Shown: piece by piece, positions 1 through 21,384 of the stretch | How the letters are laid out: each line of letters opens with the position of its first letter | How positions within the stretch are numbered: position 1 is the stretch's first letter | Assembly: GCF_038025025.1 (NCBI RefSeq) | Contig: NW_027117343.1 | Location: forward strand, 2,418,001 to 2,458,242 | Direction: 5' to 3' | DNA length: 40,242 nucleotides | Source: Phyllosticta citribraziliensis | Taxonomy: Eukaryota | Program-made: the position numbers and the translations under genes | The notes under the pieces: model-generated | The model's input: the letters and a program-made list of their open reading frames with translations, nothing else | The model's database searches: none | Told to the model about the DNA's origin: nothing

Positions 1-1806
1 TGCATTGCTTCCTTGGTCACCTGCCTTTGACTGACCATTGCACAGAAACATGCCATCTTGGAGGCCATACTCAACCTCAACCTCGACGTCAAAGATGAGA
101 GCGGACATTCCTTCTTCGACTTCTTCTCCTCGCTTTTGGTACGCGGTCTCTCAGTCTTAAACACCATATCTCCCTCTCTCATCATTTGGTCCATCGTCCT
201 ACCCTACCTGACATTCAGTAGTACCAGTGCACAGAGGCCTCAGCGACGACTGCTGCAAGTTCGGCAGAGGAGCTTGCCATCGAGCTGTGGAACCGCTTCC
301 CCGGACGGCACAAGTCGTCCTCGCCCTGGACGCATCCTCCTCTTCTGAATTTTACTTTGCTGGCGCTGTACCGCAGAGGGGCCGCTTGGTATGGCTGGTA
401 CAAGCCTATCGAGGAGGCCGCAATGAGTAAATGGCTCGCCCACGTAGGGCATAGCATGCCGTTGTGCGTGGGTTCTTGTCGGATTTGCGAGGCATATTCG
501 CGGATCCATGGAGGTGTCGTGTGAATTTGGAGCGAGTCAAGAGAGGAAAAGGCAGAACTTTAGCAATGCGGATTCTGGCTTGGGTTAAGTTCGTCAGAAA
601 AGGATTTCGCGCTAGTCCACGACTTTGAACACTGGACAGTTGGCCCTTCCAAGTCGTGTTGTTTGTATTGGGAATTTGTTCGATCGTGGCTGGTTCTGTA
701 CTCGACAAGAAGCACGGCATACCTGAATCGCAACAACATTTTCGCGTCTGTTTCGAAAGCAAGGGAGCTGGGGGACAATTTGGAACTGTTTTCGCAGCTC
801 TTTCGGAAAAGTGGCATACTTTTCTTCTTGACCAGTCGACATGCTGCAGCAACGTTTGATACTTACGAAAGGTGGCCCTGTCAATCGATGAGTCATCTGG
901 ACCTTGTTCGAACTGGAAGAGCAAGAGTATCAAGAAGTTGCTGGAACAGTGCGTAGTCGTGCGATCCAAGGAGGTGGTGGCTCAAGGACGTTCTCCGGAA
1001 CAACTGCGTTATTCCCGATTTCATTTTCCAATGCTCAAACAAAATATTCGGCTTCGGTTTCGGAAGCGAATGATGGTTTGGGGGGTCTGAGAGCTGTGAA
1101 GGGGTTGCCCTGGGTCTGGTGCCTGGGTCTTTGCGTCCAAATCCTACCTCTGCTCCGTGGCAAGTACATAGCGTCAGACGACACGACCCAATTGCAGCAG
1201 ATAGCCATGGCCTGGACGATCTGGAAAGCTTGGACACCCGAAAAGTGACATGATAGTGATTCCAAAGGATCAGATCAAGCCTCAAACGAGCCATCTCAGC
1301 GGTACACATGCCCAAGTTGCTCTCTAGTGCAGGGTAACCACATCTGACCCAAGAGCCAGGTTGCCAGAAGCGTGAGCCAGCGTGGCAGATTGGGGTGGCA
1401 CAGTTGCGTCTGGGGGCGGAGGACCATATCGTGATAAACTTCCTATTGGTTCAAAGAGACACGGGACAACAGTTGGAGTGCGTTTGCGGCGTCTGCGGCG
1501 TCTGTTGGCGTCATCCATGGCCAATCGAAGGCGCCACAAAAGTCCCACAGCGGTAGATGGTTTCGGGGAGTCGGGGGTTTTTTGAGCATCATCAACGCCT
1601 GCTGTGGTGCTGCAACAGTCGGTTTTTGTGCAGCCGTCAAGTCGAGTCGAAGATGTTTGGCTCGCTGGCGGTGGAACGGGAGACGTCCATCTCTAAGTGG
1701 AGACACAATGGCGCGTGTGATTCGATGCAACAACTGCCTGAACCAGAGCAAGCTACAGTAGAGCAGATGGTGATGGTCGAAGACGAGTTGGTGGTTTGGC
1801 GACATA

Positions 1807-1823
1807 GATGAGCTAGTCACGTG
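1807..1823 (+). promoter_or_regulatory. Putative promoter elements of the snoRNA host gene: PAC-like GATGAG (1807-1812) and E-box CACGTG (1818-1823)
   Basis: Both motifs lie just upstream of the CT-rich leader (~1880-2022) that precedes the first snoRNA intron. PAC (GATGAG) is an established fungal ribosome-biogenesis promoter motif. Function here is inferred; short motifs can occur by chance. Confidence 0.3.
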
Positions 1824-2055
1824 GAGACTTTTCGGGTGGGACGCGGTCCGTGCGCGCTAGCGGCTTACCTAGCGCGACCGCTTAATTTCTTCCTTTTCTA
1901 CCGCTCAACTTTCGAGTCTCTGCACTTTCTCTTCATCCTCTCCATCGCAAACCCCCAGGGCCTCTTCCGCCACTTCGCGCATCTTTGCCGACGGAGAGGC
2001 CCTTCTTCAACTCTTCTTTCGTGTAAGTTGCCATTGCCCCGCGTTCTTACCTCGC

Positions 2056-2142
2056 ACCGAGTGATGAGAAATTCTTATCAACGAACAATCCAACTCTTAT
2101 TCCTCCATGAGGATTCACAAGCTCTAGAATTACCCTGACCGC
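2056..2142 (+). ncRNA. Box C/D snoRNA, U45/SNORD45-like (18S guide) with a second guide to the 25S A-loop region
   Basis: Box C GTGATGA 2061-2067, D' CTTA 2096-2099, C' ATGAGGA 2107-2113, D CTGA 2135-2138. D guide AGCTCTAGAATTACC (2120-2134) is the 15-nt reverse complement of 18S GGUAAUUCUAGAGCU, in the same register as human U45 (Am159). D' guide GAACAATCCAAC (2083-2094) complements 25S GUUGGAUUGUUC. Confidence 0.9.
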
Positions 2143-2398
2143 GCTTCATGCGGACTTCGCACATCACAAATCTCTTGGTCGAGTCAGAAGCTAATTCGCC
2201 ACTCAGCATGCTCTAGTACTTGTTCTTCGTTCAACGCGCTCGACGCGTCTCAATTCACGCTTCCCGCTGCTGCCAGCTTGGAACTCGCACCTGTCGGCTA
2301 GAATGTTGGTTGGACATTGTGGGTTCCATGACTCGGGCTTGCGACCGCTTTGAAAATTGCATTAAAAGGTTGGTACCACTTGTCTATTTCATGGATAC

Positions 2399-2497
2399 GC
2401 TGGGAGTGATGATCTACCGACCCGGAAAGGCATTCCTCAATCTGAACACATGTTGTCGAATCTGTCGTTAAAAGTTTCAGCCTTGTCTGACCCAAGC
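2399..2497 (+). ncRNA. snR41: Box C/D snoRNA snR41-like (18S Gm1126 equivalent)
   Basis: Box C GTGATGA 2406-2412, D' CTGA 2442-2445, D CTGA 2487-2490, terminal stem GCTGGG/CCCAAGC. D guide AAGTTTCAGCCTTG (2472-2485) complements 18S CAAGGCUGAAACUU; the D+5 rule gives the first G of AAGG, the yeast snR41 target. D' guide AGGCATTCCTC complements 18S GAGGAAUGCCU. It is first in the conserved snR41-snR70-snR51 order. Confidence 0.88.
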
Positions 2498-2594
2498 AAT
2501 CATCCATTTTTTTATTAAACGAATGATTGAAAAGCATTAGCTAACTCGGCTTTGCCGCAGGTACTACTCCCCTCGCACCTTCACCGTACCACCT

Positions 2595-2737
2595 CTCGCA
2601 TATCATGAGGAAATTTGAACGAACGGGCGGACAGACTGTGCAGCTCTTGGACGACACCCGTTAAAAACAAGGCGTACAAACCTTGGGGTGTTGCGCTAAG
2701 GGATTGCTTGTTGAGAATTCGTCAGCTGATCCGCGAG
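2595..2737 (+). ncRNA. snR70: Box C/D snoRNA snR70-like (18S Cm1639 equivalent, decoding site)
   Basis: Box C ATGAGGA 2605-2611; guide ACGGGCGG (2623-2630) before D' CAGA (2632-2635) complements 18S CCGCCCGU, and D'+5 is the C after CCG. Long internal hairpin ACACCC..CAAGG/CCTTG..GGGTGT, D CTGA 2726-2729, terminal stem CTCGC/GCGAG. Middle position of the cluster. Confidence 0.85.
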
Positions 2738-2828
2738 CGATTGCACGGCATCTGTTGTTCAGGTTTTGGAGCTTCGAAACTAACAATCAAGATGCAGGTA
2801 CGATTCACGACGCTTTTCTTCACCTACG

Positions 2829-2996
2829 GCCATCTTTTATGATGATCACTATTCACACTGTTTGATCCGGCTTCGTGTAACGAACGTTGCCGGGCATGAG
2901 ATTTAAACACTGAAAATTCTGATTTAATGAGGTTCGTTGCCCTTCGCTCACGACAAATATACCTGCTGACATGCGACACAGCCTGAATACGATGGC
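2829..2996 (+). ncRNA. snR51: Box C/D snoRNA snR51-like (25S Um2729 and 18S Am100 equivalents), interrupted by a predicted internal intron 2932-2981
   Basis: Box C ATGATGA 2839-2845. Guide TATTCACACTG (2850-2860) with D' TTGA 2862-2865 complements 25S CAGUGUGAAUA. Hairpin CCGGC/GCCGG 2867-2893. Guide CTGATTTAATGAG|C complements 18S GCUCAUUAAAUCAG. D box CTGA 2983-2986 follows the guide only after splicing out 2932-2981. Terminal stem GCCATC (2829-2834)/GATGGC (2991-2996). Confidence 0.88.
2932..2981 (+). other. Predicted 50-nt spliceosomal intron nested inside snR51, itself inside host intron 2798-3065
   Basis: Donor GTTCGT at 2932, branch GCTGAC 2965-2970, acceptor CAG 2979-2981. Its removal joins ...TTTAATGAG to CCTGA, restoring the exact D+5 register on 18S A100. 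Confidence 0.78.
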
Positions 2997-3137
2997 TTTG
3001 GCCGCAGCTTTTTGCAAGTTTTGTTTGACGTCAGAGCTTGCGCTGACCCATGTGCGTCGCTGCAGATACCCAGCATGGATTTACGCCGTTCTTTCGATTA
3101 TGAGTAAGTCTACCCGTTTGCTTTCAAGATGCACTTG

Positions 3138-3225
3138 GCTTCCTGATGAACCGAATATTCGCTGTGTTCTTCCTGAGACACGACGTTGAAGAAAAAAATA
3201 ATATTCACCTTGGAGAACTGAAACA
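3138..3225 (+). ncRNA. Box C/D snoRNA, U55/SNORD55-like (25S) with a second guide to 5.8S rRNA
   Basis: Box C CTGATGA 3143-3149. D' guide TTCGCTGTGTTCTTC (3158-3172) with CTGA 3173-3176 pairs with 5.8S GAAGAACGCAGCGAA (one G-U). C' TTGAAGA 3186-3192. D guide TTCACCTTGGAGA (3204-3216) with CTGA 3218-3221 pairs with 25S UCUCCAAGGUGAA in the U55 register. Distal stem AGATGCA/TGCATCT. Confidence 0.88.
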
Positions 3226-3631
3226 CTTCCATCTCTGCATCTCTGAAAACTCGCTGTCGTTAGTTTCAGCTGCTGATTGGTCAACAGTACCCATATCGCT
3301 GGATAGAACAAGTAGATAGCAAATGCAAGGATTTGAGCTGTAAATTATCGTGCTATGAACATGACTCGCAACGTGAAGTAGACTCCCTCGGCAAGGCTTG
3401 ATACAAATATGCTCGACAGATAGCTTTGATACGCGTCCAACACATGGTGAAGCAGACTCGAGGTGTTGGTGCCAAATTTGTGTTGCTCCCCGACAGCTCG
3501 CTGGCGGGTGATCGGCGACGGGCAAGCGAACAGTTGCTGGCAACCTGAAAGGAGGACGCAGTCCGCCGCAAGCTCGACCTCTCCATGTCCCGCAACATGC
3601 CGCCACAACAACACATGGCTTCTCCCGTACT

Positions 3632-6600
3632 ATGGAACTCCGTCGCTGGGATGTGATCCTCGCCTGTGTCGCACTCTTCATTGCTTGGGGATACGTCACT
3701 CACTGGGCCCCGTCGTTGCGCTATGCTCCTCACGCCTTCATCGCTGGAATCGCCGTCACGATAGCCGGAACGACCTACGTAATCCTGTCAACCACCCGCG
3801 CACCTCACCATGGCGACATTCGACCGATTCGCGCTCCGCATCACGTTTCCTTTGTTTCTGCGCAAGCGTGGCAAAAGGAAACCGCCTCGCTGAAGCAGAG
3901 ATCCATCTACCGAAGAGAACCGCTGTACCCGTCCTCCTTTCTCGTCTCCGACCACCTCGACAAGCTTCTCGACCTGATACTACGCGACTTTGTACAGAGC
4001 TGGTATGGAAACATCAGCCCGCGGCCGACCTTTACAAATGAAGTGGACAGAGCAATTCGCGCGGCGCTGTCCAGCATCCGCGACAAGCTGCTGGCGGTGG
4101 ACCTGGTCGAGATGACCATATCGCGGCTGGTGCCCATGATAACGGCGCACATGAGGGACTTTTACGAAGCAGAACGTGTCGTGCGTGGCCGGAAGCTCTC
4201 GAGGGACATTACAGAATCAGAGGAGCTTGACATGGCCATAGCAGCCAAGTATCGCGATGGCAAGCTGCACCCGGCGGCTTCTCTCACGTACAATAATCCC
4301 AAGACTGTGCAGCAACAGCATCTGCGAGGCATTGTGACGCGGCTCATGTCCCAAGTTCTGCCACGGAATATGCGAACGAGCCTGGCTGTCAACACGTTGA
4401 TCAAGGAGATTGTTGCTTGCGCGGTCCTCTGCCCAATCATGGAACTGCTCTCGGATCCGGATACATGGAATCAGATGTTGGAGGGGTATGGACGTACACT
4501 GCTACAGGACCGCAAAACAGTGCGAAAGCTCCGAGCTGCCCTCGACGAACACGCTCCACAGTCGCCCAAAAATCCGAACCCCACCTCCTTTCCACGGCTT
4601 GCTCCTGGGGATAACGAACGCAAGTTTGAGCGGTTCATACGAGCTATACGCCAGTGTAGCTCGCTGTCTGATGCCCGAAGAGCTAGGAGTGAGATTGCCA
4701 GTCAATACAAGAAAGAGGTGCGAGTGGAGGGACAAGACCAGCTATATCTGCGTCGCTTGGAGACCGCTCGTCGGATCTTGGATCAAAGGGTTGTCCATCT
4801 CAGCGCCGGAGGTACTGCTGCTCAAAAACCCTCGCTCCAAGTCCCAGGGTCTTTGCCGCGCGAAAATTCAAGGCTGGAAAACGCTACGCTTCAACATGTC
4901 TTGCATGATTCCTCTGGCTTGTCATACTTTATGGAGTTCATGGATCGTCAAGGGCTGATGCCTCTTGTCCAGTTCTGGATAGTGGTCGATGGATTCCGGA
5001 ACCCCCTTGAAGAAGACATGGGCGAAACTGATGAACCGGGTCTTGACCATTCGTTTGGTGGATCGGACCGCGCTGATCTGGCTCAAATCTACGAGGCCTA
5101 TCTGGTCAAGCCTGAACTTGCAGTGCCCGATCATCTGCGTCGCACCGTCGACGACTTCCTCAAGGCGGGCAAGAAGGCGACAAGCGCACAGTATCTCGCA
5201 GCTAGGCGTGCTGTTCTGCAAACACAAACATCCGTATATCTGGCCATGCAAGATAAGCATTTCCCTCGATTCAAAAAGTCGGATCTCTGGTACAAGTGGC
5301 TGGCATCCGACGAAGCTTCTGCAATGTCCAAGAATCTTAGTCCGACCAAAGGCCCTATTCACACCAACTCGTACAGTGGACCACCAGCACTAGGAGCAGC
5401 ACCACCCTCTCTGCCTCGGACACTGTCCAGTCAATCTATCGATCTTCGGCGGGCGGCGGTTTCGACATCTGACCTCAAAAGCGCAAAGCCAACATCAGCA
5501 GGTCCGCTGCGGAGATCTTTGGATGACACAGGGAGACCACCACTGTTCGATGACGACATGGAGAATGATCCTCTGGCGGGCTCGACGCAAAGTGTGGATT
5601 CCGAGTATGATGTGGGCAGAGGGCGCGATGACAATGCGCAGGTCGTCGATGCCATGCAAGAGGCCCTGAACGACATCATGGACAATGAACCTGACAGAGA
5701 TTCTCTTTTCTCTGATGGACCAAAGTCTGTACAGGAGAATGAATCAATGCGGGGCTCATTGGAAATCACTCGGTCCTCATCGCCTGCCTTTCTCAAGAAA
5801 GACTCGAAGGACAAACCGAATATCGCATCCCTTGGACTCGTGGGCGCACCAAAGACCAGAGGTGTTTTTGAAGATGACTTGTTTGGAGATGAGGAGGAAA
5901 AGTTTCTTGAGGACGAAATAGAAGACTCGGACCCGAATGATAACGAAGAAGACGCAATTCATGAAGCGGCCCCCGGCGACCTAGGTCTGGCAGAGGCAAT
6001 TGATGCCTTGACGCTCGAAATCGACCGTCTGTCGAATCAAGAATCTATCGTCGACTCTCTCACGAACAAAGCTGAACTCACAAACAATGCGGCGGAGTTG
6101 AGAATTTTAAGGAAGTCAAAAGCAAGTCTGCAAAGAGAGATCCATCGAAAAGAATTGCAGCGCCAGCAGTATGTCATTCAAGAGAGCGACAACAGTTTGT
6201 ACGGTCGGGCAACTGTGTCTATACAGTCTATCATGGTCGGCAAGGACGAAGAAGGCGGAGAATTCGCTCTATGTAAGTCAAGTTTCTGGTAATTGATGTC
6301 CGTAGCTTACAGTGTCAGATGTCATCGAGGTCCGTCGAGCACCTGGAGAACACATGCCGGCCGCCACCTGGGTCGTTCCGCGACGATACAGCGAATTCCA
6401 CGAGCTTAACAAGCGCCTTCGTTCCAAGTACCCCATGATTCGCAACCTCGAATTTCCGCGCCGCCAAGTGATGCTGAAGCTCCAACGAGACTTTTTGCAA
6501 AAGCGACGAGCATCGCTCGAAAAGTGGCTTAGAGAATTGCTCCTCATTCCGGCCATCTGCCGCAGCCGCGAGCTACGGGCATTCCTCTCCCAGCGTACCA

Positions 6601-21280: not shown

Positions 21281-21384
21281 TGCGTCGGCCGGGAATCGAA
21301 CCCGGGGCTGATCGAGTCATTTTTCGACCTTTGGAGGGAGGGTGAGAATGGCAACGATCAATTTTACCACTAAACCACCAACGC
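21281..21384 (-). tRNA. tRNA-Gly(GCC) with a 33-nt intron (21316-21348)
   Basis: Minus strand reads GCGTTGG TG GTTTAGTGGTAAAAT T GATCG TT GCC A [intron] T CGATC AGC CCCGG GTTCGATT CCCGG CCGACGC A. Acceptor, D, anticodon and T arms all pair; mature length 71 nt; T-run terminator downstream. Confidence 0.95.

Follow-up and report, generated by a model that had tools for sequence, protein, structure and literature searches.

Three snoRNA units, snR41, snR70 and snR51, follow one another on the forward strand of Phyllosticta citribraziliensis, and the introns that hold them touch: the acceptor of one is followed at once by what looks like the donor of the next. How can three snoRNAs be released from introns that have no exon between them? 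The first-pass annotation of this DNA had proposed stepwise splicing, with each snoRNA leaving in a lariat of its own. We examined the locus within its stretch of 40,242 nucleotides (the window) and conclude that it is probably the non-coding host of fungal snoRNA cluster III in its Pezizomycotina form, spliced recursively from 5' to 3'.

The host gene, its snoRNAs and its splice junctions

The features of the locus are listed in Table 1. The order snR41-snR70-snR51 that makes up cluster III is found on one strand of the window. Two flanking introns, A and C, each hold a further C/D-type or Rfam-matched unit, for which the putative labels 'U45' (intron A snoRNA) and 'U55' (the Afu_294 unit in predicted intron C) are taken from Luo et al. 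(2013, PLoS One 8:e58547; PMC3596301). The 5' limit of exon 1 (1954) is the first base under RNA contigs, and exon 3 lies under them solely as unspliced RNA. Intron III encloses snR51 together with the nested intron B. No rDNA lies within the window.

Table 1. Features of the snoRNA host locus, in window coordinates
Feature	Position	Strand	Evidence and motifs
Exon 1	1954..2022	+	X2 record 8 from 1954, X1 record 2 from 1962; both run to 2022, then 2207
Intron A	2023..2206	+	GTAAGT..CTAAT..CAG; joint 2022>2207 in X1 and X2
C/D-type snoRNA inside intron A	C box 2061-2067, D box 2135-2138	+	boxes read in the sequence
Exon 2	2207..2368	+	ends AAAG; X1 record 2, X2 record 8
Intron I	2369..2560	+	donor GTTGGT, branch CTAAC 2541-2545, acceptor CAG 2558-2560; joint 2368>2561
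snR41 homologue, Rfam Afu_455	2402-2492	+	68.1 bits (gathering score 48); D box CTGA 2487-2490
Intron II	2561..2797	+	donor GTACTA, branch CTAAC 2780-2784, acceptor CAG 2795-2797; joint 2368>2798
Middle C/D snoRNA ('snR70')	2600..2734	+	C box ATGAGGA 2605-2611, D box CTGA 2726-2729
Outer intron III	2798..3065	+	donor GTACGA; predicted branch CTGAC 3043-3047, predicted acceptor CAG 3063-3065
snR51 5' part	2828..2931	+	stem strand GGCCATC 2828-2834, C box TGATGA 2840-2845, guide CTGATTTAATGAG 2919-2931
Intron B (50 nt)	2932..2981	+	donor GTTCGT, branch CTGAC 2966-2970 (A at 2969), acceptor CAG 2979-2981
snR51 3' part	2982..2997	+	linker C, D box CTGA 2983-2986, stem strand GATGGCT 2991-2997
Exon 3 (predicted, 38 nt)	3066..3103	+	between predicted acceptor 3065 and GTAAGT at 3104
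Intron C (predicted)	3104..3287	+	GTAAGT..CTGAT..CAG motifs; carries Afu_294
Afu_294	3139-3224	+	75 bits in Rfam (gathering score 43)

The identities of the units rest on several kinds of match. On the snR41 homologue, the Rfam model named snR41 itself reaches 27.1 bits and stays under its threshold. For the middle unit no Rfam family was found at E values up to 10, and its name, snR70, follows from its position in the cluster order given in PMC3596301; of 105 metagenome loci, 77 have an nhmmer homologue of 2598-2735 on the downstream side of snR41. The + strand of the intron A snoRNA likewise matches no Rfam family at E up to 10, and nhmmer found its homologues upstream of snR41 in 41 metagenome loci. 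Weak minus-strand Rfam matches to sR52, snoR1, sX6 and sR43 were dismissed as noise. The distance from the D box to the branch A is 56, 54, 54, 60 and 55 nt in the five C/D snoRNA units, counting from the spliced D box for snR51.

The splice motifs named by the first-pass annotation (CTAAC, CAG, GTACTA and GTACGA, GTTGGT and GTACCA) are all present at the places it gave, and CTGAC stands at its proposed branch points near 2969 and 3046. At the junction of introns I and II, the branch motif CTAAC (2541-2545) and the acceptor CAG (2558-2560) are followed directly by GTACTA (2561-2566), and at the junction of introns II and III the same two motifs (2780-2784 and 2795-2797) are followed directly by GTACGA (2798-2803). 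Acceptor and next donor thus abut at 2560/2561 and at 2797/2798. Judged by positions +4 to +6, GTACTA and GTACGA are weak donors. The donor of intron I, GTTGGT (2369-2374), overlaps the motif GTACCA (2373-2378). The predicted end of intron III consists of CTGAC at 3043-3047, with the A at 3046, and CAG at 3063-3065.

We compared these sites with Logan contigs of the same organism from four runs; such contigs show the presence of a form and not its absence. Four GT..AG joints were observed: 2022>2207, 2368>2561, 2368>2798 and 2931>2982. The second was found in one contig of X1 as 2366>2559, which becomes 2368>2561 when the cut is moved two positions to the right; this contig is co-linear on to 2825 and retains intron II. 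The third was also found in one contig of X1, as 2366>2796, equal to 2368>2798 with the GT..AG cut. These are the two intermediates that the first-pass annotation had expected, and with the acceptors 2560 and 2797 both in use its claim that no exon separates the three units is borne out. In the independent RNA-seq runs X5 and X6, contigs start at 2559 and 2796, the two junctions. The locus combines juxtaposed 3' and 5' splice sites with RNA that joins the upstream exon to them, as a recursive site does, and the arrangement is real and expressed in Phyllosticta citribraziliensis.

Depth is a single figure per contig, and the forms are not ranked by it: the contig of exons 1-2 has 3449, the two junction contigs have 476 and 683, the contig with snR51 has 912 and unspliced intron I has 40. 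Products that have lost intron I and products that have lost introns I and II were seen, and none in the reverse order, among contigs that record presence only. Removal of intron III (2368>3066) was not among the contigs of the four runs, nor was removal of intron C or a joint 2560-2798, and no contig covers positions 2930-2979 and 3276-3349; gaps of this kind in contigs are not evidence of absence.

Two variants of the arrangement were rejected. A micro-exon downstream of 2560, for instance one ending at a donor GTACCA at 2586, was the finding that the first-pass annotation had said would speak against zero-length exons. The 2368>2798 product contains no sequence from 2561-2797, so the micro-exon is absent from it, and no contig joint starts within that interval. 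The other variant, also suggested by the first-pass annotation, is a stwintron-like donor at 2373 nested within the first donor. It does not hold: in the contig 24 exon letters run straight into 2559/2561 and no GTTG intervenes, the exon is joined at 2368 and not at 2372, and just 14 of 46 homologous clusters have a GT at +5/+6 of the first donor.

Conserved sites and the proposed order of splicing

For the homologous loci we used a metagenome set of 105 loci, and the junction counts leave out the 28 that have no snR70-like match. The junction between the snR41 and snR70 units reads YAG|GTA in all 63 sequence clusters. The strict pattern CTRAY..YAG|GTA occurs in 61 of the 63 first-spacer clusters compared to a mean of 0.19 (maximum 2) out of 63 in 200 shuffles, and after the other YAGs of the first spacers GT comes next in just 1 of 87 cases. 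The junction pattern is far beyond chance. Between snR70 and snR51 we observed AG|GT in 41 of 42 clusters (GTA in 37) and AG|GC in one, with the sites of four of the 42 second spacers (L032, L055, L077 and L009) assigned by eye from the sequence. GC is the usual variant donor. Past the spliced snR51 D box, a branch motif and YAG follow in 41/41 clusters at 43-197 nt, mostly at 67-95 nt.

The exon end that precedes intron I is conserved as well. With the first donor in homologues defined by AAG|GT alone, exon 2 ends in AAG in 46/46 clusters and in AAAG in at least 42 of them, and a G at +5 is present in 43/46 first donors compared to 12/63 abutting donors (Fisher p = 1e-15). Apart from this end the host exons show no conservation. 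The missing +5 G at the abutting donors would agree with donors that depend on the exon end ligated to them. All signals of the arrangement are conserved. Acceptors that face a real exon do not show the pattern: after the acceptor downstream of snR51, GTA comes next in just 16/41 clusters, and in the 28 loci without an snR70 unit GT follows the acceptor in 2 of 17 scorable cases. Several of these 28 loci are truncated; the rest resemble lineages that have a real exon or lack the intron.

The strongest competitor to stepwise splicing is a single donor at 2369 with three alternative acceptors at 2560, 2797 and 3065, where the GTs at 2561 and 2798 never act as donors. Lariats with two or three snoRNAs would then need an endonuclease to part them. 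Both observed joints begin at 2368, and one donor would yield 2368>2561 and 2368>2798 just as well; the weakness of the abutting donors at +4 to +6 also agrees with it, and Luo et al. left the model open in the text of PMC3596301. It nevertheless gives no reason for GTA in 63/63 and GT in 41/42 clusters after the acceptor, nor for the invariant AAG exon end. A conserved donor dinucleotide after each acceptor is predicted by stepwise splicing and not by pure alternative acceptors, and acceptors ahead of real exons lack the pattern. In addition, a product that retains intron II or III would yield no snoRNA from that intron, and recursion at a zero-length exon is described as biochemically shown in a snoRNA host of S. 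pombe (bioRxiv 10.1101/226894). We consider a single donor with alternative acceptors unlikely.

Recursive splicing from 5' to 3' is the most likely mechanism, and the conserved GTA and AAAG exon end appear to favour it. In the first step, exon 2 with its AAAG end would be joined past the acceptor 2560 and the snR41 lariat released. The ligated AAAG|GTACTA would form a new donor, spliced to 2797 with release of snR70, and AAAG|GTACGA would then serve as the donor of outer intron III, spliced to 3065. The nested 50-nt intron B (2932-2981) would have to leave before intron III does. Each lariat would finally be debranched and trimmed to the snoRNA. The donor roles of 2561 and 2798, the order of events, the use of 3065 and the processing of the lariats are what we infer from the junctions and their conservation. 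Under recursive splicing, two exons that once stood between the three middle introns would have shrunk to zero, and every recursive step would draw again on the AAAG end of exon 2 as its 5' exon. The abutting donors, which have GTA and mostly no +5 G, may be competent only when ligated to this AAAG; if so, AAAG-dependent donors would enforce the 5'-to-3' order and one snoRNA per lariat. The interpretation in the first-pass annotation is thus supported in part: its zero-length exons and its inner snR51 intron are retained here, and its alternative for the first unit, the nested donor at 2373, is given up.

snR51 and its nested intron

The snR51-like match at 2835-2938 scored 34.9 bits in Rfam, under the gathering score of 44, because intron B stands in place of the D box; the D box of the Rfam snR51 model lands on intron sequence. 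The inner snR51 intron of the first-pass annotation is real: contigs of X1, X5 and X6, which also cover the 5' part of snR51, contain the joint 2929>2980 (2931>2982 with the GT..AG cut). One contig consists of 2796-2929 joined to 2980-3093, with intron B out and the remaining intron III still in. The distance from intron B to the outer donor is 134 nt, and to the branch motif of the outer intron it is 62 nt. It sits between the 3' guide of snR51 and the D box, and splicing yields the guide 2919-2931, a C and then CTGA.

Splicing also brings together a 7-bp terminal stem, in which 2828-2834 pairs with 2991-2997. A terminal stem of at least 5 bp is found in 36/38 clusters, compared to 9/38 when the 5' part of the intron is used as the flank; the control across loci is weak, since partial conservation of the stem sequence lets 673/1406 mismatched pairs reach at least 5 bp as well. 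A homologous intron B is present in 39/44 metagenome guide segments, where its removal restores guide plus CTGA. Its position is shifted by 2-3 nt in L042, L039 and L032. Four guide segments have no intron B, and in these guide and CTGA are contiguous. We dropped the idea that intron III ends at 2981 and shares its acceptor with intron B: the CCTGA after 2981 is a conserved D box, and the spacing from D box to branch instead fits 3046/3065.

Spliceosomal introns are also carried by the U3 snoRNA genes of S. cerevisiae. Both U3 and snR51 here are snoRNA genes split by such an intron, with the difference that U3 is independently transcribed whereas the split snR51 lies inside a host-gene intron.

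A second competing explanation accepts only two abutting introns. The segments 2798-2931 and 2982 onward would then be an exon bearing snR51, which would be cut from spliced host RNA, and 2797/2798 would be an acceptor only. The sole contigs in this region, which attest presence only, do keep 2796-2929 joined to 2980-3093 and have no 3066 joint, and the N. crassa homologue CD6 is annotated as exon-encoded in PMC2780460. An exonic snR51 is at odds with the GT after acceptor 2797 in 41/42 clusters, with the branch and YAG past the spliced D box at a spacing like that of the other four units, and with the 10/42 ESTs of other Euascomycetes that lack all three introns as reported in PMC3596301. We regard it as improbable. 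In a third competing explanation the splice-like motifs arise by chance and an RNase III-type endonuclease cleaves an unspliced polycistron, as reported for the homologous cluster of S. cerevisiae (PMC5033589, PMC3596301). It is already contradicted by the GT..AG joints in the contigs and by signals conserved far beyond shuffles, and we give it next to no credence.

Returning to an intronic snR51 released by recursive splicing, intron B parts the 3' guide from the D box, and the C/D pair and terminal stem that snoRNP assembly needs are thus confined to the spliced RNA. Assembly of the snR51 snoRNP may hinge on earlier splicing of intron B, because D box and terminal stem exist solely in the spliced RNA. 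There may also be two forms of snR51. In a short form the internal CTGA at 2919-2922 may act as the D box for an snR67-like guide upstream, and in the long spliced form the D box at 2983-2986 may serve the snR51 guide. The combination of a ratchet wired into the sequence, snR51 assembly gated by intron B and two snR51 forms is a tentative reading, which we find plausible while leaning slightly against it as a whole.

Relation to known systems

Mitrovich et al. (2010) reportedly described yeast snoRNA polycistrons whose splicing is recursive and nested. The architecture of our locus is already known and matches the cluster III of Luo et al. (PMC3596301), who describe three introns in direct succession with a nested intron B in all Euascomycetes; abutting snoRNA introns are ordinary for the clade. 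Their cluster and our locus have the same snoRNA order, lack the same two interior exons and carry intron B between the snR51 antisense element and box D. The Euascomycete cluster is flanked by introns A (U45) and C (U55); at our locus intron A is spliced and intron C is predicted. There is no essential difference, and the locus adds one more species. Among the 42 ESTs reported in that paper 18 lacked intron I, 14 lacked I and II, 10 lacked all three and none showed the reverse order, and its authors did not decide between stepwise splicing and one donor with alternative acceptors.

To this account we add RNA contigs of Phyllosticta citribraziliensis and counts over divergent metagenome lineages, about 40-60 of them. 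Further additions may be the invariant AAAG end, the abutting donors without +5 G and the shifted or absent intron B, some of which the supplements of PMC3596301 may already show; its main text does not use the words AAAG, consensus, lariat or debranch.

In the polycistrons of the Candida clade, Debaryomyces and Yarrowia described by Donovan et al. (2016; PMC5033589), snoRNA introns are split by exons sized 0, 1 or negative, and ordered splicing regenerates splice sites as proposed for our locus. Those cases mostly concern cluster II, with a 1-base exon in cluster III of C. parapsilosis, and, unlike at our locus, snR51 has no internal intron in the systems presented there. Spliceosome-bound RNA ends have been reported for a zero-length exon in an intron of S. 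pombe SPNCRNA.445, the host of snoRNA61 (bioRxiv 10.1101/226894). There and in C. neoformans BOT1 (bioRxiv 10.1101/224170) a 3' site abuts a 5' site in a short intron and is conserved among relatives, as at our locus. For these two the reports show recursion by spliceosome-bound ends, branches and junctions, whereas our locus is known from first-step junctions and conservation.

The ratchet points of Drosophila and vertebrates (Duff 2015, Sibley 2015) have YAG|GT, stepwise 5'-to-3' removal and a re-used upstream exon end, like our model. Their introns are described as tens of kilobases long, whereas the steps here span about 190-270 nt with one snoRNA per lariat, and the regenerated donor here keeps only GTA. 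In stwintrons of filamentous fungi (PMC8469720) the inner intron is removed first, as intron B would be here. What the inner intron of a stwintron breaks is a splice signal of the outer intron, whereas intron B breaks the snoRNA and leaves the outer donor, branch and acceptor uninterrupted.

The locus offers a compact natural case of recursive splicing in short introns, in which three rRNA-modification guides, one of them with a split gene, would be set free by four or more splicing events in about 700 nt. For annotators it is a confirmed expressed case, neither one long intron nor an unspliced polycistron. It is also a tractable system for the question left by the 2013 paper, true recursion or alternative acceptors, which the counts of GTA after the acceptor and of the AAAG exon end tilt towards recursion.

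Splice joints and signals at the locus

We placed the contigs of four sequencing runs (X1, X2, X5 and X6) on positions 1500-3700 and recorded joints with a GT..AG cut. The X1 and X2 contigs match the window with full identity; RNA is not named in the records of these runs, but the contigs contain GT..AG joints and do not cover 1796-1943. For X5 and X6 the declared type is RNA-seq, from a relative with ~90-99% identity.

Signals, snoRNA units and contig joints at the locus
Feature	Position	Strand	Evidence or remark
C/D-type unit in upstream intron	boxes 2061-2067 and 2135-2138		
Exon 2 end and first donor, AAAG+GTTGGT	2368/2369	+	read in sequence
Afu_455 (snR41 homologue)	2402-2492		Rfam 68.1 bits, gathering score 48
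CTAAC branch motif; CAG, GTACTA adjoining	2541-2545; 2558-2560	+	read in sequence
Middle C/D-type unit	~2600-2734		ATGAGGA 2605-2611, CTGA 2726-2729
CTAAC branch motif; CAG, GTACGA adjoining	2780-2784; 2795-2797	+	read in sequence
snR51	2835-2938		Rfam 34.9 bits, under gathering score 44
Inner intron: GTTCGT; CTGAC; CAG	2932; 2966-2970; 2979-2981	+	read in sequence
Predicted outer third-intron end: CTGAC; CAG	3043-3047; 3063-3065	+	read in sequence
Afu_294	3139-3224		Rfam 75 bits, gathering score 43
PXA/RGS-domain protein gene	3632-6292		next gene downstream
Joint, intron A out	2022>2207		X1, X2
Joint, intron I out	2368>2561		X1
Joint, 2369-2797 out, none of 2561-2797 kept	2368>2798		X1
Joint, 50-nt intron out	2931>2982		X1, X5, X6

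Reading the sequence confirmed the motif map of the first-pass annotation, including both CAG/GTAC junctions with their branches and donors. The same annotation had claimed that no exon separates intron I (snR41) from intron II (middle unit) or intron II from the outer intron III (snR51), and the two joints leaving 2368 bear this out. The contig with the first of them is co-linear to 2825, so intron II was retained in it. Contig starts in X5 and X6 also fell at 2559 and 2796, the two junctions. The contigs of the four runs held no joint to 3066, none from 2560 to 2798 and none removing 3104-3287, though contigs show presence, not absence.

Removal of intron B, the 50-nt intron nested in intron III, was observed with the outer intron still present. 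One X1 contig joins 2796-2929 to 2980-3093, with the sequence to and past 3065 still there, and an X5 contig with the same intron removed is then unspliced to 3250.

Rfam searches with E up to 10 gave no match for the middle unit or the upstream-intron unit. Intron II contains a second CAG followed by GT (CAG/GTTTTG, 2760-2768), 35 nt 5' of the real junction; no branch motif precedes it and no joint in the contigs uses it. A 5984-nt X1 contig over the downstream PXA/RGS gene stops at 3392 against adapter sequence, which may mark the start of that gene's transcript or a fragment end. Elsewhere in the window a tRNA match on the minus strand (21281-21384, 49.1 bits) spans 104 nt against the 71 positions of the model, a length that points to an intron in the tRNA gene.

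Conservation of the abutting junctions

With the conserved snR41 3' end as query, a scan of metagenome contigs gave at least 105 loci, 80 of those listed with 1500-nt flanks. Of the 105 loci listed, 77 have a middle-snoRNA homologue downstream of snR41. The remaining 28, which are incomplete or apparently differently laid-out lineages, were kept out of the junction counts. Spacers were clustered by shared 8-mers so that near-identical sequences were not counted twice.

For the snR41/middle junction this left 63 clusters with 69 distinct spacers, which are 111-177 nt long and could not otherwise be aligned. Among the matches listed, a branch motif followed by CAG or TAG and then GTA occurred in all 63 clusters. 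The strict motif was present in 61 of the 63, compared to a mean of 0.19/63 in shuffles, and at other YAGs in these spacers GT came next in only 1 of 87 cases (both among the matches listed). The middle/snR51 junction reads AG/GT in 41 of 42 clusters and AG/GC in one (L020), the 41 donors beginning with GTA (37), GTT (3) or GTC (1) among the matches listed; four of these sites were assigned by eye after the automatic rule had failed there. In L020 and L064 the abutting donor is GC rather than GT (TAG/GCACAA); L051, a close relative, has TAG/GTACAA.

As a control we used the acceptor after snR51, where a real exon comes next: GTA followed in only 16 of 41 clusters among the matches listed, and the window has CAG/ATA at 3065/3066. 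In the 28 excluded loci, GT followed the snR41 acceptor in 2 of 17 scorable cases among the matches listed. The 16 clusters with GTA after snR51 (L052, L027, L006, L035, L036 and others; matches listed) carry it despite an exon ~35-60 nt long downstream, with a strong donor of GTAAGT type after it. There GTA may be an extra, optional recursive site by which exon 3 is skipped, or this exon may be in the course of being lost.

The host exons are otherwise unconserved among the matches listed, yet all 46 clusters have AAG/GT at the end of the exon before the first intron, and at least 42 have AAAG there. Donor strength also differs: a G at +5 was found in 43/46 clusters for the first donor, 12/63 for the second-intron donor and 16/40 for the third-intron donor (matches listed; first versus second, Fisher p = 1e-15).

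The intron inside snR51

In the homologue loci among the matches listed, the snR51 guide, ending in GATTTAATGAG, is followed by an intron of 46-62 nt, and directly after its acceptor come a C (or another base) and CTGA. The matches listed gave 44 guide-like segments in 43 clusters. Removal of intron B restores GAGCCTGA in 32 segments and GAG-N-CTGA with another linker base in 7 (by eye); 4 have a contiguous guide and D box without intron B (L079, L022, L055 and L018), and the last is an unrelated match. Intron B lies 3 nt farther upstream in L042 and L039 and 2 nt in L032 with an unchanged spliced product; L067 as a further shifted form is a doubtful assignment. Judged from these sequences, the shifted and absent forms show cleanly that an intron within an RNA gene can slide and can be present or absent. 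In the Rfam snR51 consensus the D box comes after this guide; in the window the model places its D box on intron B sequence, which accounts for the sub-threshold score.

Sequence on the 5' side of the C box forms a terminal stem with the 3' flank of the spliced D box, as GGCCATC (2828-2834) does with GATGGCT (2991-2997) in the window. Stems of at least 5 bp formed in 36/38 clusters with this flank but in 9/38 with the intron's own 5' part (both among the matches listed), in 254/760 trials with shuffled flanks and in 673/1406 with flanks swapped between loci, a weak control because the stem sequence is partly conserved. The distance from the spliced D box to the branch A at 3046 is 60 nt, like the 56, 54, 54 and 55 nt of the other four units, which supports 3065 as the outer-intron acceptor.

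A 3' guide resembling that of snR67 is also present in the snR51 unit: AAACACTGAAAATT, with CTGA next at 2919-2922 (region 2902-2931 with 2982-2986; Rfam snR67, 27 bits, E 0.0073). These four letters also open the snR51 guide, and the spliced RNA therefore has two D-type boxes at a distance of 10 nt. In L071, L022 and L067 each guide has a snoRNA to itself, and each of these snoRNAs has an intron of its own. The cloned N. crassa CD6 RNA is 76 nt long, and the D' target is the only one listed for it (PMC2780460). Short unspliced and long spliced snR51 forms may coexist.

Proposed order of splicing and published relatives

The best reading, favoured but not proven, is a 5'-to-3' recursive ratchet. 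Exon 2 would be ligated successively to 2561, 2798 and 3066, the AAAG exon end and the next GTA would rebuild a donor at each step, and each step would free one snoRNA per lariat. Positions 2561 and 2798 would serve as donors and 3065 as acceptor in a strict order of events, with debranching and then trimming. Intron B would leave before the outer third intron, giving snR51 its D box and stem. The splice signals with their conservation, two of the three ligations and the loss of intron B from RNA that keeps the outer intron are shown; the other parts of this scheme are inferred.

The main rival is a single donor with three alternative acceptors. It accounts for the observed joints but leaves the conserved GTA and exon end unexplained, and would put several snoRNAs into one lariat. 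Alternatively snR51 might be exonic here, as an N. crassa annotation (PMC2780460) has it and in keeping with the contigs; against this stand the conservation of the donor at 2798 and that of the branch and acceptor 3' of the D box. The interpretation in the first-pass annotation is supported in part. Recursion, which it had also proposed, is favoured on the conserved GTA and exon end, whereas its stwintron option with a donor at 2373 is rejected, as the exon joins from 2368 without extra letters in the contigs and GT stands at +5/+6 in only 14/46 clusters among the matches listed.

Exactly this type of locus is described by Luo et al. 2013 (PMC3596301): introns A (U45) and C (U55) are added, while intron B sits within snR51 and separates the antisense element from box D. 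Their 42 ESTs comprised 18 without intron I, 14 without I and II and 10 without all three, none in reverse order, and the choice between stepwise splicing and alternative acceptors was left undecided there. Its main text holds no occurrence of the terms AAAG, consensus or lariat, and neither the invariant AAAG exon end nor the systematic lack of +5 G at abutting donors was found in it; its supplements may contain them. For Candida-clade species, Donovan et al. 2016 (PMC5033589) report that such clusters are spliced in classical, nested and recursive ways, and for C. albicans they cite ordered splicing from Mitrovich et al. 2010. Zero-length exons were described in a snoRNA host-gene intron by S. 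pombe spliceosome profiling (bioRxiv 10.1101/226894) and in a protein-coding gene of C. neoformans (bioRxiv 10.1101/224170). The locus in the window is an instance of a published, clade-wide design that is already known.
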